DNA of 64,000 nucleotides from Escherichia phage T4_ev151, in the sequence record LR597660, one strand, 5' to 3'. The notes beneath the pieces are model-generated. The model ran no database searches and was not told where the DNA came from. It saw only the letters and a list, made by a program, of their open reading frames with translations. The position numbers and the translations under genes are program-made. Positions 1 through 35,398 of this stretch are shown here, piece after piece. How positions within the stretch are numbered: the first letter of the stretch is position 1; each line of letters starts with the position of its first letter.

Positions 1-279
1 TCCTCTTTTGATATAGTATTTTTTCTCATCATATTCCATCCACAGTTCAACTAAAAGTTCTTTCTTATTTGTGCTGTTTATTAATTGACCTTTCTTTACA
101 TCACGAAATGGCTTGCCAAAAAGCCCAAATGTGATGGCTTCTAGCATAGTAGACTTACCACCGCCATTTCGTCCAGTAATAAGAGTTTTTTGAACCTTAT
201 CTAATTGAATGTCAATCCCATTTTGACCAACTGACATTATATTTTTATATTTTACTCTATTAAGTTTAAAATTCTTCAC
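1..279 (-). CDS. 46: Recombination exonuclease subunit gp46 (SbcC/Rad50-like), N-terminal fragment; gene continues past window start
   Basis: Minus-strand translation from 279 gives VKNFKLNRVKYKNIMSVGQNG...TGRNGGGKS (Walker A); start is GTG at 279-277 overlapping upstream stop, or ATG at 237. Confidence 0.85.
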   Translation of the reverse strand, partial: MKNFKLNRVKYKNIMSVGQNGIDIQLDKVQKTLITGRNGGGKSTMLEAITFGLFGKPFRDVKKGQLINSTNKKELLVELWMEYDEKKYYIKRG

Positions 280-491
280 AAAAGATTCCTTTTAATGTAT
301 CTTTTAGACCATTCTATCATATCATCATAATCTAAAAAGTATTCATCAAATTCAGCCATGCAAACAACGCCTTGTGCTGTTTTTGATGTAATATAAATTA
401 TTCCAACATATCTAGAATCTTCTTCGGTATAATCAATGTTTGCTATGAATTCATCATTAATGTCAAATGTCGAAAACTTCACAGTATGCAT
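276..491 (-). CDS. Hypothetical small protein (46.1-like position); start uncertain (track gives 539)
   Basis: ORF ending in TGA at 278-276; ATG at 491 or GTG at 482 avoids most overlap with upstream ORF. Confidence 0.4.
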   Translation of the reverse strand: MHTVKFSTFDINDEFIANIDYTEEDSRYVGIIYITSKTAQGVVCMAEFDEYFLDYDDMIEWSKRYIKRNLL

Positions 492-726
492 CCTTAATAC
501 AAGATACGGCCATATCTCGTAATGATTTAGGTGTGTCATTATCTAAAATGTTGAAGTTAAAGGATACAGCCCAGTCAGTGCAGACCGTAACCTTTTTAAT
601 ACAATTATCTTCAACCTCTAGCGGTTCAAACCAATATTCAATAATTTCTTTATGCCCAATATCATCTTTTACTTCGCATTCAAAATGCTGACTCATCATA
701 ACATTTTTAAATTCATCAAAAGTCAT
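463..726 (-). CDS. Hypothetical protein (46.2-like position)
   Basis: 87-aa ORF, ATG at 726 with AGAGG SD, ATGA overlap with gene 47 stop. Confidence 0.5.
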   Translation of the reverse strand: MTFDEFKNVMMSQHFECEVKDDIGHKEIIEYWFEPLEVEDNCIKKVTVCTDWAVSFNFNILDNDTPKSLRDMAVSCIKDAYCEVFDI

Positions 727-1742
727 TGTGTTGCCTCTACATATAGCTGATTTGCATATTGAATAAGTGCTTCACGGTCAGAATCGGTGATGTCTGGAAT
801 TGCATTAATGTATTCTTCCATCAACGTCTGAAGAGATTGAACTTCAACCTCTTCGCTGTCATCTGACTCGACAGAGTTATCAATCTTTGACACAACTCGT
901 AATGAATGCACAACTTTCTCTAGTTCAGATTCGAACTTCGTCAGATTTTTGTCTACTTCAGTTACTATAACACGTACTGATAGATTTGTAAAATCTTTAT
1001 AGTCAATTTTTCCTTTAAATGGATAATGAATTCTACGATGCCAGGTAGTATTATTTGGAATAAATTCCATTCGTTCTGTTTCTGTATCAAACATCCAGAA
1101 CCCACGAGGGTCATTCTCGTCACCTGCTGTTAGTGTCCATGGTGTCCCAATATATCTGACGTTAGCAGCCTCAGAAATAGTATGGAAGTGACCAGACCAC
1201 ACTTCTTTATAAGTCTTAAGGAAATCAGGTTCAAGACCATGAGATTTCATTCCTTTATAAAAATAAAATCCATTCAGTTCCCAGTGACCAACACAAAAAG
1301 AAGCAGATGAAGTTTTGATATGCTCAAGAATTTCACCAGTATTTTCTTCACACATCCAAGGAATTAAATCAATTAAACATCCTTCAAAATCTACTGTAGT
1401 AGGCTTATCATATACTTTAACATTAGGATATTTAGCCAAAAGCTCAGTAGAGGCATTTGGATGCATTACATTTTTATAGTGGAGATCGTGATTTCCTACA
1501 ATAGTATGTAATGTGATTCCAGCACCATCAAGCATTTGAACTATTTCACGGGCAAACTCCATAGTTTTATGCGTGATTGCTTTTCGCACATCAAAAATAT
1601 CACCATATTGAATCCATACAGTAATTCCATTTTTCTTAGAATATTCTATCGCTTGTTTAATTCCATCAATTTGAATACCGCGAATCCACTCATCATCAGC
1701 TTTAACGCCTAAATGCCAATCACCTAAATTTAAAATTTTCAT
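723..1742 (-). CDS. 47: Recombination endonuclease subunit gp47 (Mre11/SbcD-like)
   Basis: 339 aa; calcineurin-like phosphoesterase motifs GDWHLG, GDIFD, GNHD; T4 gene order. Confidence 0.95.
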   Translation of the reverse strand: MKILNLGDWHLGVKADDEWIRGIQIDGIKQAIEYSKKNGITVWIQYGDIFDVRKAITHKTMEFAREIVQMLDGAGITLHTIVGNHDLHYKNVMHPNASTELLAKYPNVKVYDKPTTVDFEGCLIDLIPWMCEENTGEILEHIKTSSASFCVGHWELNGFYFYKGMKSHGLEPDFLKTYKEVWSGHFHTISEAANVRYIGTPWTLTAGDENDPRGFWMFDTETERMEFIPNNTTWHRRIHYPFKGKIDYKDFTNLSVRVIVTEVDKNLTKFESELEKVVHSLRVVSKIDNSVESDDSEEVEVQSLQTLMEEYINAIPDITDSDREALIQYANQLYVEATQ

Positions 1743-1879
1743 ATATCAAGAACCGTCATTGAAATGCAAAATAAAATTATTGAAATAAACCCATCTGGTG
1801 TGCTAAAGAAACCAATCCAGCATGCTCTAGTGAATAGATAAAATGCAAGAAAAAGTATCACATATCCAAGAAATATCAT
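1739..1879 (-). CDS. Small hydrophobic protein (47.1 position), not in ORF track
   Basis: 46 codons MIFLGYVILFLAFYLFTRACWIGFFSTPDGFISIILFCISMTVLDI; GGAG SD 9 nt upstream; stop overlaps gene 47 ATG (ATGA). Confidence 0.45.
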   Translation of the reverse strand: MIFLGYVILFLAFYLFTRACWIGFFSTPDGFISIILFCISMTVLDI

Positions 1880-1902
1880 TATATCAAACTCCGTATAAAG
1901 CT

Positions 1903-1920
1903 AAAGGGCCGAAGCCCTTT
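1903..1920 (-). terminator. GGGC-UUCG-GCCC tetraloop hairpin just downstream of a-gt stop
   Basis: Inverted repeat aaagggc/gcccttt with CGAA/UUCG loop; U-rich flank is interrupted. Confidence 0.4.
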
Positions 1921-3121
1921 ATTTTGTAATAATGTCAAACTGTTCTTTAAAGCAGAAGCTTGAATCTTGATGCTGATACAAAAATTCATATGCTTTTTCT
2001 CGCTCACGGTCATAAAGAGCTCGGTCAGATGACAGTTCTTTAATACGTTCAAATGTTGATTCCATATCATTTTCATCAAACCAAATGATACCGCTATCAT
2101 GCGAGGTCAAAGGAGTATTATCAACACGGAATTTTAAATTTTCGCCAGTAGATTTCCAAAATACCGGAATTGTTCCACATGCACCAAGCTCGAGATGAGT
2201 ATATTCTAAAGAGCGCTGTAGATATTTTTTATCCAACTTACTCAGCTGATAACCAAATCCGGATTTACTCATGCGTTCAAGCATTTCGCTATTTACATAA
2301 CGGTCAAGAATTTGCGTTGGCAAATTAGGAGCAATTTTAATTTGGTCTACTTGATGAAGACGATAATACTCATATGGAATTCCTTTTTCTTTAATAGGAA
2401 TGAACGCTGGAGAACGTTCCAGACCTTCCATAATAGTACTTAGTCCTGCAGGTTTAAGATGTTTTTCGTGAAAATCAAACATCTGATAAAAACCTTTCCA
2501 TGTAGTCGTACGACCAATCCAACGGTTGATATTCATGTTAATTTCAGAAACATCTTTCCAGTAGGTTGATCGAACCTTCGCAATATCCATAGGAGGCTGA
2601 AAGTTATATACGGTCGGTGCTTCTTCAATATCATCAAACAGAGAAACAGTTTCCGGATACCATTCTTTCATCAGAACTTTATTAAAATCACCATTATCAG
2701 AATGGCTAAAAATAACATCAGCTCGACGAACAGTTTCTTCTAATCCCAAATTTCGACGCAAAGAAAGAGAAGAATGGTCATGTTGATAAACTACAACACG
2801 AACCGAAGGTTTAATGTTATCAATAATTTTTTTATAGTTATTAATAGTGTCTTCTTCAACCGAAGTAGCAGGAACTGAATTGATAATTAGAATATCACAA
2901 TCATTTACCAGCTTAAGTGTTTTATCATATTCTTTTGCCAATAAAACCGGAATTGAAAATGATTTATAATCATGCGCGCAATTACGAGTAAATGATTTAT
3001 CTTTAGCATAAACCAAAGTTACTTCATGACCATTCTTAATAAACCAATCACGTTGCTCAAGAGAAAATTTAGTTACACCACAACCTTCAAGACCTCGAGC
3101 CATAAAAATACATACTTTCAT
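1919..3121 (-). CDS. a-gt: DNA alpha-glucosyltransferase
   Basis: 400 aa, near-identical to recalled T4 AGT (MxxCIFMARGLEGCGVTKFSLEQRDWFIKNGHEVTLVYAKDKSF...). Confidence 0.95.
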   Translation of the reverse strand: MKVCIFMARGLEGCGVTKFSLEQRDWFIKNGHEVTLVYAKDKSFTRNCAHDYKSFSIPVLLAKEYDKTLKLVNDCDILIINSVPATSVEEDTINNYKKIIDNIKPSVRVVVYQHDHSSLSLRRNLGLEETVRRADVIFSHSDNGDFNKVLMKEWYPETVSLFDDIEEAPTVYNFQPPMDIAKVRSTYWKDVSEINMNINRWIGRTTTWKGFYQMFDFHEKHLKPAGLSTIMEGLERSPAFIPIKEKGIPYEYYRLHQVDQIKIAPNLPTQILDRYVNSEMLERMSKSGFGYQLSKLDKKYLQRSLEYTHLELGACGTIPVFWKSTGENLKFRVDNTPLTSHDSGIIWFDENDMESTFERIKELSSDRALYDREREKAYEFLYQHQDSSFCFKEQFDIITK

Positions 3122-33161: not shown

Positions 33162-33425
33162 TTATTTCATATTATTGAAATATTCTTCTGCGATTTCGTC
33201 GTTATCATGGTAAACTTTAGAAGACAGTTTAACATAACCTTCTGCTGTGAACATATTAATCACAACTTTTACAGTATACCACTGACCGTCTTCATTACCC
33301 ATTACTGCGTAAGTTTCAAACATCGGATGATCAGGACCGATAACTTTAATATCATTCACTGTACGACCGAAATCTTCTGAAACGCATTTCATAAAGAAGT
33401 TGAACAGTTCGCCGTAATTATCCAT
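33162..33425 (-). CDS. Hypothetical protein
   Basis: ATG 33425 with GGAG SD; track extension translates promoter/leader. Confidence 0.5.
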   Translation of the reverse strand: MDNYGELFNFFMKCVSEDFGRTVNDIKVIGPDHPMFETYAVMGNEDGQWYTVKVVINMFTAEGYVKLSSKVYHDNDEIAEEYFNNMK

Positions 33426-33468
33426 TTCATTCTCCAAGTTGTTTTCTGTATCAGTAGTTGATAGTTGT

Positions 33469-33499
33469 ATAGTACCATGGAAGAACAGAGATGTAAACA
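33469..33499 (-). promoter_or_regulatory. T4-type early promoter with conserved leader
   Basis: Minus strand GTTTACA, 19 nt, TGGTACTAT plus ACAACTATCAACTACTGATACAG. Confidence 0.55.
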
Positions 33500-33621
33500 G
33501 TTTTGTGAAAAAATTTTTAGGGAATTCTAGGGCAGGGATGGGCAATTAAAGGATAGGATAATATATTATAAAGGGTATAAACTAAATGATGCCTAGAGAG
33601 GTCCAGAAAGGCCTAGATACC

Positions 33622-33646
33622 AAAAAGCCCTATCATTTAGATAGGG
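33622..33646 (-). terminator. Rho-independent terminator
   Basis: Minus RNA CCCUAUC-UAAAU-GAUAGGG then CUUUUU, after the stop at 33655. Confidence 0.55.
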
Positions 33647-33654
33647 ATTTAAAA

Positions 33655-34218
33655 TTATTTACCTAGTTTAGTTATTATAGCTTCTGCAGCAGCTTTTAGC
33701 TTAGATGCAGTGTTAATACGATTTTTAATTTCAGTATACGCATCGCCAAGAACATCAAGGCTATCAGAATAAACACTTACACTATTGCGTTCGCTATTTG
33801 AAATAGAACCTTTAGTTTTACGATCAAAATCGGTGTACACGTCTTGAAGATCGCGGGCTGCCTTCTTTGCATCATCCAATGCATCAAGAGCTTTATTCAA
33901 AGCATTAACGTATTTTTTGGTGTCGAACATATTCTTAGAAATTTTAACAGGTGCACGTTCAGGAGTAGCTAATACAGATTTAGGAACCTGAGCGCCAGAT
34001 GCCAATTTCTTAGAAATTTTGAAAAATGCTTTATTGAATTTATTTTCTTGACTCATTGTAAAAGAACTATTATCGATGTTGTACATTTCAATAGCTTTAG
34101 CTTTCCACTTAAGAAAATCGCCGCGGTCTTTTGGGTCCAAGTGGAAGAATACTTTAGTAAGATCTGCTTCAGATGGTAATTTTGCTGCTTCGGTTAAAAA
34201 TTCTGCATAGGTTTTCAT
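33655..34218 (-). CDS. Internal protein family member (capsid-targeting sequence MKTYAEFLTE)
   Basis: 187 aa; N-terminus MKTYAEFLTEAA; AAGGA SD. Confidence 0.65.
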   Translation of the reverse strand: MKTYAEFLTEAAKLPSEADLTKVFFHLDPKDRGDFLKWKAKAIEMYNIDNSSFTMSQENKFNKAFFKISKKLASGAQVPKSVLATPERAPVKISKNMFDTKKYVNALNKALDALDDAKKAARDLQDVYTDFDRKTKGSISNSERNSVSVYSDSLDVLGDAYTEIKNRINTASKLKAAAEAIITKLGK

Positions 34219-34308
34219 TTAAAATCCTTGAAATAATCTATCGGTTGGTTATTAATTATTTATTACTTTGTTATTATCCGTAACAGCGTTATCCGAGTGA
34301 TTCAAACT

Positions 34309-34336
34309 AAAAAGCCCCAACCTTTCGGTCGGGGCT
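34309..34336 (-). terminator. Rho-independent terminator ending the tRNA/stable-RNA transcription unit
   Basis: Minus RNA AGCCCCGACC-GAAA-GGUUGGGGCU then U5. Confidence 0.65.
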
Positions 34337-34652
34337 AAGCCTTGCGGCAACCTTGTCGGGGTTCCACCTGCTAAGGCAAGTGTTTGTACGAAACGCCGGG
34401 ATTCGAACCCGGTTATCAAGCAGTTGACGCTACTCAATATTTTTAAAAGGCCATATCTCGACCATATCCGAACGTTCCGTCAAAAACGCTACTCGGCTTA
34501 CGGCAAAGATATTTCCTCGAATCGATAATTCGGTGCGCCGTTTCTGCTGTGATATAAGGGGGCATTAACAAAACATAAAGATTTATTAATGCCAGTCCTT
34601 AAACAGGGAACATCAGTCCGACGACTTGCCGGTAGCGACCCGGCTTCTTGTC
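34337..34652 (-). ncRNA. Stable small RNA region (T4 species 1/2 position), with a tRNA-like T-arm
   Basis: No ORF; between tRNA-Arg and terminator; GGTTCGAATCC T-arm at 34392-34410 without a full cloverleaf. Confidence 0.4.
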
Positions 34653-34729
34653 TGGTCGAGGCAGAAGGATTCTAACCTTCAACCTACGGATTAGAAATCC
34701 GTTGCTCTATACAATTGAGCTATGCCCCG
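34653..34729 (-). tRNA. tRNA-Arg (anticodon TCT), CCA encoded
   Basis: Cloverleaf read by eye: acceptor cggggca/tgcctcg, anticodon loop tTCTaa. Confidence 0.8.
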
Positions 34730-34732
34730 TAA

Positions 34733-35398
34733 TTAAAATTTCATTTTTCGACCTTTAAACCATCCTTCTGGAATTGGGTCAGTTTTCTTAATACGTTTAG
34801 AAACTTTTTCATCTAATGAATGAATCCACATCATACCAAATTGGGAATTCTTTTCGCCCTGTTGATGTTTATTTCTGGCGTGAGATTCTTTCATTTTATT
34901 AATAGTTTCAGGAGTATGGGTCTTACCCAAGAAAGATTTAGTATTTAAAAATTTCTCTCTATACTTAGGATTATCCCAAAGCCGTTTAAACCTTTCTGAA
35001 CCCATTTTACGATATTTTTCTTTAAGGTCTGGGTCGTTCTCAAATCTGGTTTTAAAAGCGGCAGCTCCTTTTAAGGAAGCTTCTTTCTTTTTATCCAAAT
35101 ATTCTTTAGTGTTTAAATGGTCCCAACCACCTTCACCACCTAATTTCAAATTATAAACATCAGGGCGCTTTAAAAACTCTTCAGTCACAATATTCTTTTC
35201 TGACTCAAACATAGAGGTTTTATCGTCAAAGAACTCTAATATTTCTTTAGAAAAATTTTCTATACCATACTTATCTTGGGCTCTTTTTAATAATTTACCA
35301 GAACCCATATATCCATCATCTAAATTTTCGGTAGAATGAGCGCCTATATAGATTTTATTATTAATTTTATTTGTTATTTTATAAATGTAATGGAACAT
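34733..35398 (-). CDS. segB: GIY-YIG homing endonuclease SegB
   Basis: 221 aa; MFHYIYKITNKINNKIYIGAHS GIY-YIG core; sits inside the tRNA cluster as in T4. Confidence 0.85.
   Translation of the reverse strand: MFHYIYKITNKINNKIYIGAHSTENLDDGYMGSGKLLKRAQDKYGIENFSKEILEFFDDKTSMFESEKNIVTEEFLKRPDVYNLKLGGEGGWDHLNTKEYLDKKKEASLKGAAAFKTRFENDPDLKEKYRKMGSERFKRLWDNPKYREKFLNTKSFLGKTHTPETINKMKESHARNKHQQGEKNSQFGMMWIHSLDEKVSKRIKKTDPIPEGWFKGRKMKF

Follow-up and report, generated by a model that had tools for sequence, protein, structure and literature searches.

Translation of gene 46 in Escherichia phage T4_ev151 (sequence record LR597660) very probably starts at a GUG codon, at positions 279-277 on the minus strand of the window (the whole 64,000-nucleotide stretch of DNA that was analysed), and yields a full-length Rad50-type ATPase of 560 amino acids; the probability assigned to this reading is about 0.93. 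Use of the GUG in vivo is suggested by the sequence anatomy of the site, its identity with phage T4, the conservation of a start codon among relatives, the constraint on codons 2-14 and the overlap architecture of the locus.

Gene 46 encodes a Rad50/SbcC-like recombination nuclease subunit and leaves the window at its left edge, with codons 1-93, including the Walker A motif, inside (1..279, minus strand). Read from the GTG (277..279, minus strand), the translation is V(fMet)KNFKLNRVKYKNIMSVGQ.... The first-pass annotation, made from the DNA letters and their open reading frames, had placed the start at this GTG, in a GTGA overlap with the stop of the preceding ORF, with AAGGAA 7 nt upstream and the first ATG 14 codons in, and these details are borne out by the sequence. 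The TGA stop of ORF 46.1 (276..278, minus strand) overlaps the GTG, and the two reading frames share 4 nt (GTGA). The Shine-Dalgarno (SD)-like AAGGAA is located within the 3' end of ORF 46.1 (286..291, minus strand). Its last A is at -7, its GGA core ends at -8 (about 7 nt upstream of the GTG) and the spacer between the element and the GTG is 6 nt (285-280, TCTTTT). The minus strand reads ...ATT AAA AGG AAT CTT TTG TGA in the frame of 46.1 and TAA AAG GAA TCT TTT GTG AAG AAT TTT AAA CTT... in the frame of gene 46. In the latter frame, a TAA stop (294-292, minus strand) lies upstream of the GTG, which is the sole ATG, GTG or TTG codon between this stop and the first in-frame ATG (235..237, minus strand). 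This internal ATG is codon 15 (Met15) and is the rival start in some automated annotations; the translation in question is that of codons 2-14 (KNFKLNRVKYKNI; 238..276, minus strand), the residues of which are conserved and align with Rad50 and Pfam domains. No plus-strand ORF of 30 aa or longer overlaps positions 237-279.

The start site is the same as that of T4 gene 46 (gp46, T4 Rad50; NP_049669.1) in its GTG, its AAGGAA element and its GTGA overlap with 46.1. In the T4 reference genome (NC_000866), gene 46 is annotated as complement 33302..34984 (560 aa) with the same GTG as first codon (34984), and 46.1 ends at 34981. No base differs between the window and T4 over the first 130 bases of gene 46, counted from the GTG, or over the 110 bases before it; the three differences in the 411-nt alignment all lie farther upstream. 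All 93 gene 46 codons of the window encode the T4 gp46 residues, with three synonymous nucleotide differences in the first 279 nt. The match noted between the translation and the N-terminus of gp46 is sound, as 'MKNFKL...' is the GTG decoded as initiator Met. The first-pass annotation had also left a choice between a non-ATG start and a protein N-terminally shorter than that of T4, and had proposed the T4 gene 46 start for comparison. That comparison returned the same annotated GTG. The shorter protein rested on a false premise, the T4 DNA being identical here including the GTG, and the choice dissolves because T4 carries the same codon. The GTG start of gene 46 is an ordinary finding, already present in the T4 reference annotation. 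Of the 20 complete T4 genes between 22 and 38 kb, 46 and 46.1 alone have an annotated GTG start.

The SD match belongs to the GTG only and not to the internal ATG. The duplex of AAGGA with the anti-SD sequence at the 16S rRNA 3' end is predicted at -5.6 kcal/mol, the strongest in the interval -60 to +70 of the GTG, whereas the best duplex before ATG 237 is -2.4 kcal/mol and is counted as no SD match. T4 genes b-gt, 43 and 45 have a similar element at a similar spacing, and the spacing at gene 46 fits the optimum of 6-9 nt reported for T4 (PMC2988022). The site has the features of a canonical GUG start: no other candidate codon separates the GTG from the preceding in-frame stop, and AAGGA ends 7 nt upstream, within the 5-9 nt expected of an SD element. 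Local RNA structure near the gene 46 start is weak (-6 to -12 kcal/mol per 60-100 nt); thus, no structural claim is made for the site. A sigma-70 promoter scan of window positions 1-2000 gave 12 sites, no excess over shuffled sequence (9.7 +/- 3.1), and an Rfam scan of the same positions gave chance-level matches only, with no family at gathering score.

These signals bear on an alternative in which translation starts only at ATG 237-235, to give a 546-aa protein from Met15, and the 14 upstream codons are an untranslated leader that is open by chance. ATG is the commonest start codon, the region upstream of ATG 237 is A/U-rich and weakly structured, and at least one deposited genome (PQ871103) annotates gene 46 in this way. 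Yet the ATG is without an SD match (-2.4 kcal/mol), and the T4 reference annotation is the GTG. Together with the coding signature, domain boundary and residue 15 data given below, this makes initiation at the ATG alone extremely unlikely.

The codons downstream of the GTG are under protein-level constraint. Among 28 distinct sequences (31 loci from a first IMG/VR scan with T4 gp46 as the query, plus the window; 56-100% identity), seven residues of the segment are invariant (K2, F4, K5, L6, Y11, N13 and I14). Six of the seven (all except F4) show synonymous codon variation, at third positions and, for Leu, at the first position as well. The ratio of synonymous to nonsynonymous codon differences is similar in codons 2-14 (1565:1149) and codons 16-31 (2205:1670). 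Because no other gene overlaps codons 2-14, with 46.1 ending at the fourth base, the constraint can only act on the gene 46 product. This in-frame constraint argues against a start at Met15 alone.

The N-terminal segment is also where the similarity to Rad50 begins. By single-sequence and profile alignment, gp46 residues 5-92 match residues 2-86 of several Pyrococcus furiosus Rad50 crystal chains, with gp46 residues 5-14 corresponding to chain residues 2-11. Pfam matches in the 93-aa fragment (AAA_23, 1.8e-14; SMC_N, 4.7e-8) likewise start early, with SMC_N position 2 falling on gp46 residue 6 and AAA_23 position 1 on residue 8. The Walker A motif (GxxGxGKS/T) is present as GRNGGGKST at residues 36-44. 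The closest solved structures are the Rad50/SbcC ABC-ATPase heads of P. furiosus (1F2T and 3QKR) and T. maritima (3QF7); the segment and the Walker A motif align from chain residue 2 of the P. furiosus crystals, and sequence identity to these heads is low (E about 1e-5 to 1e-14). In Rad50 and ABC heads, the N-terminal segment is the first strand of the ATPase lobe; a protein that starts at Met15 would lack this strand, and the product of an ATG-only start would be without the residues that align to the Rad50 chain N-terminus and to the first AAA_23 and SMC_N positions. The PDB copy searched held no T4 Rad50 structure, and a single-sequence AlphaFold2 model of the 93-aa fragment was unusable (mean pLDDT 37). 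Beyond the window edge, Cys288 and Cys291 of the putative CxxC zinc hook are invariant in the T4 orthologue and 11 relatives, while the Pfam Rad50_zn_hook match in gp46 is below the cut-off (16.7 vs 24.3 bits); the C-terminal lobe of T4 gp46, also beyond the window edge, weakly matches Rad50 chains.

Residue numbering in the T4 literature is in agreement with the GTG. A 2026 T4 Rad50 paper numbers Arg154/Arg155/Lys156 and Asp479, and these residues fit gp46 only in the numbering that starts at the GTG; recombinant T4 Rad50, made as a C-terminal intein fusion, is reported to be active. In the literature covered, which was partial, no native gp46 N-terminus determined by Edman degradation, mass spectrometry or initiation-site ribosome profiling was found, and a full-text search returned no stated GUG start of gene 46 and no relevant T4 ribosome profiling. 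The two starts differ in their predicted peptides. The tryptic peptide of residues 13-28, NIMSVGQNGIDIQLDK, would require initiation upstream of Met15, whereas an ATG start predicts (f)MSVGQNGIDIQLDK or SVGQNGIDIQLDK.

A start codon at the position of the GTG is conserved across the family. A second IMG/VR scan, with a 12-sequence profile, identified 80 gp46 loci (35-100% identity), and in all 80 the homologous codon is a start codon (ATG in 57, GTG in 17 and TTG in 6), with this position displaced by a few codons in the most divergent loci. Within the 28 distinct sequences, codon 1 varies at its first base only. Start codons also toggle within the same upstream context: GTG in L076 and L078 vs ATG in L077, GTG in L111 and L114 vs ATG in L112 and L113, and TTG in L121 vs ATG in L122. 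On these alignments, toggling among ATG, GTG and TTG marks the position as a start codon and not as a sense codon for Val, Met or Leu. In all 80 loci (L055-L134), the start codon is followed by an A (NTGA), because the second codon is AAR (Lys) or ATH (Ile) in nearly every case.

By contrast with codon 1, the internal ATG is not conserved in the wider family. About 25 of the 80 relatives have Leu in place of Met15 (e.g., ...KNILSIG, ...QNILSVG and ...KNLLSTG), and most of these are without another start codon downstream, which again speaks against an ATG-only start. The same observation weighs on the possibility that both starts are used, with the GUG giving the full-length protein and minor initiation at AUG 237 giving a truncated isoform whose role would be separate or regulatory. 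AUG 237 does reside in an unstructured, A/U-rich stretch, and the idea rests on precedent, in that T4 makes internal-initiation products from several genes. However, AUG 237 has no SD match and is poorly kept among relatives, and the isoform would be without the residues that align to the start of the Rad50 ATPase domain. A second, minor start is, thus, considered very unlikely.

The GTG is common among deposited phage genomes. Counts of 32-mers in INPHARED, made by megablast with a 28-nt exact word, are lower bounds. The 32-mer that spans the 46.1 tail, the GTG and five codons is found in at least 498 records, and its counterpart carrying ATG instead of GTG in 0 records. The GTG leads directly into gene 46 in at least 407 of the 498 (72 records with T4-type codons and 335 with RB-type codons) and heads an inserted homing endonuclease of the T2 type in 19. 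In 71 records, gene 46 starts as ATG AAA TCA TTT AAA CTT behind a different upstream sequence, and this ATG again occupies the homologous position. That the GTG is invariant in about 500 genomes was considered as a sign of selection and rejected, as these genomes share 95-99% identity and no base of the 32-mer varies among them.

Annotation of the start is not uniform among these genomes. Phage vB_Eco_ZCEC15 (PQ871103; L052, 348 vs 306) has gene 46 annotated from the internal ATG (codon 15), and its GTG, SD element and codons 2-14 are intact despite this call. The comparative data show that the internal-ATG call is wrong. In the record of phage ECML-123-2 (OL631480; L053), the stretch examined has no annotated CDS across genes 46 or 47.

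The GUG start is proposed to operate as follows. GUG 279-277 would be read by initiator tRNA as fMet to give MKNFKLNRVKYKNIM.... Ribosomes may bind de novo via the AAGGA SD element, or, having terminated 46.1 at the UGA of the GUGA overlap, they may step back one base and initiate again, i.e., by translational coupling. One or both of these routes, independent and coupled initiation, may be used. Overlapping stop and start codons in T4 are viewed as suggestive of translational coupling (review, PMC2988022). In T4 coupled cistrons, such as the clamp-loader genes 44/62 and mobE/nrdA (PMC2988022), the upstream stop overlaps or abuts the downstream start, as it does in the chain of genes found in the window. 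The putative 46.1/46 coupling differs in its restart codon, which is GUG vs AUG in the T4 coupled cistrons.

The neighbourhood is that of T4, and the window comes from a Tequatrovirus closely related to it. Window positions 1-1800 match 633 phage records, almost all Tequatrovirus, with Shigella phage JK23 as the best match (99.9%). The minus-strand gene order is a-gt, 47.1, 47, 46.2, 46.1 and 46, as in T4, and gene 46 is the last cistron of an overlapping chain, 47.1-47-46.2-46.1-46. Genes 47.1, 47 and 46.2 occupy 463..1879 (minus strand), with ATGA overlaps at 47.1/47 (1742-1739) and 47/46.2 (726-723) and a 20-nt overlap at 46.2/46.1. Gene 47, the Mre11/SbcD-type partner (339 aa; 723-1742, minus strand), is upstream on the same strand, in an order that matches T4 and JK23. 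ORF 46.1 (DUF5487, 68 aa; 276..482, minus strand) is the immediate upstream partner of gene 46 and is also annotated from a GTG in T4 (482-480 in the window). This GTG sits behind an AAGGA. The same-strand stop/start overlap at gene 46 is kept among relatives, as expected of a coupled pair. Each of the 80 loci has an upstream ORF, 40 codons or longer, whose stop falls between -2 and +25 nt from the start. The arrangement is NTGA in 63 of these, and the other 17 stop between -2 and +25 nt.

ORF 46.1 itself has the appearance of an inserted gene whose two junctions each fall at an (A/G)TGAAG start, because in phages without 46.1 the tail of 46.2 (ATCAAGGATGCTTA..ACG; 46.2 is at 463-726, minus strand, in the window) runs directly into the ATG AAG of gene 46 (L013, L014, L017, L018, L024 and L027, around 1480-1515). 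A weak similarity (pairwise E = 1e-4) links the N-terminus of 46.1 (FDINDEF) to that of the homing endonuclease of T2. Between 46.1 and 46, T2-type phages carry a gene for an HNH homing endonuclease (phrog_655) that is absent from the window (915-1795 in L051, from T2, PV958097 70687-72518; 1023-1769 in L050, from PV390659). The T2-type HNH ORF takes over the GTG and with it the opening six codons of gene 46 (VKNFKL), beyond which its sequence diverges, and gene 46 restarts 868 nt downstream as ATG AAA TCA TTT AAA CTT (MKSFKL). The HNH junction is noted in at least 19 records and the ATG-type restart in 71. The HNH gene of T2 itself appears to be broken into two ORFs (204 and 85 aa). Farther upstream in the window, a hairpin with a C(UUCG)G tetraloop (AAAGGGC-UUCG-GCCCUUU; 1902-1921, minus strand) is found directly after the a-gt stop (TAA, 1921-1919) and about 20 nt before the ATG (1879) at which 47.1 starts; a terminator scan flagged this hairpin only on the plus strand.

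Initiation at GUG is generally weaker than at AUG, and the weaker codon might keep gp46 output low. Non-AUG starts are present in 23 of the 80 family loci, in at least four distinct upstream contexts. In T4-type phages, the G-to-A change that would make the start ATG is silent in 46.1 (TTG to TTA, both Leu), and it is seen in 0 of the 498 records. Whether selection, as opposed to neutral drift, has favoured a deliberately weak, coupling-dependent start for gene 46 is doubtful on these data; if it has, the weak start would hold the Rad50 subunit low and tie it to upstream translation. The start assigned here adds little new biology, as the GTG is already in the reference annotation and is assumed in the numbering used by T4 Rad50 biochemists. 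Its practical value is in annotation quality, where internal-ATG calls drop 14 conserved residues of the ATPase head.
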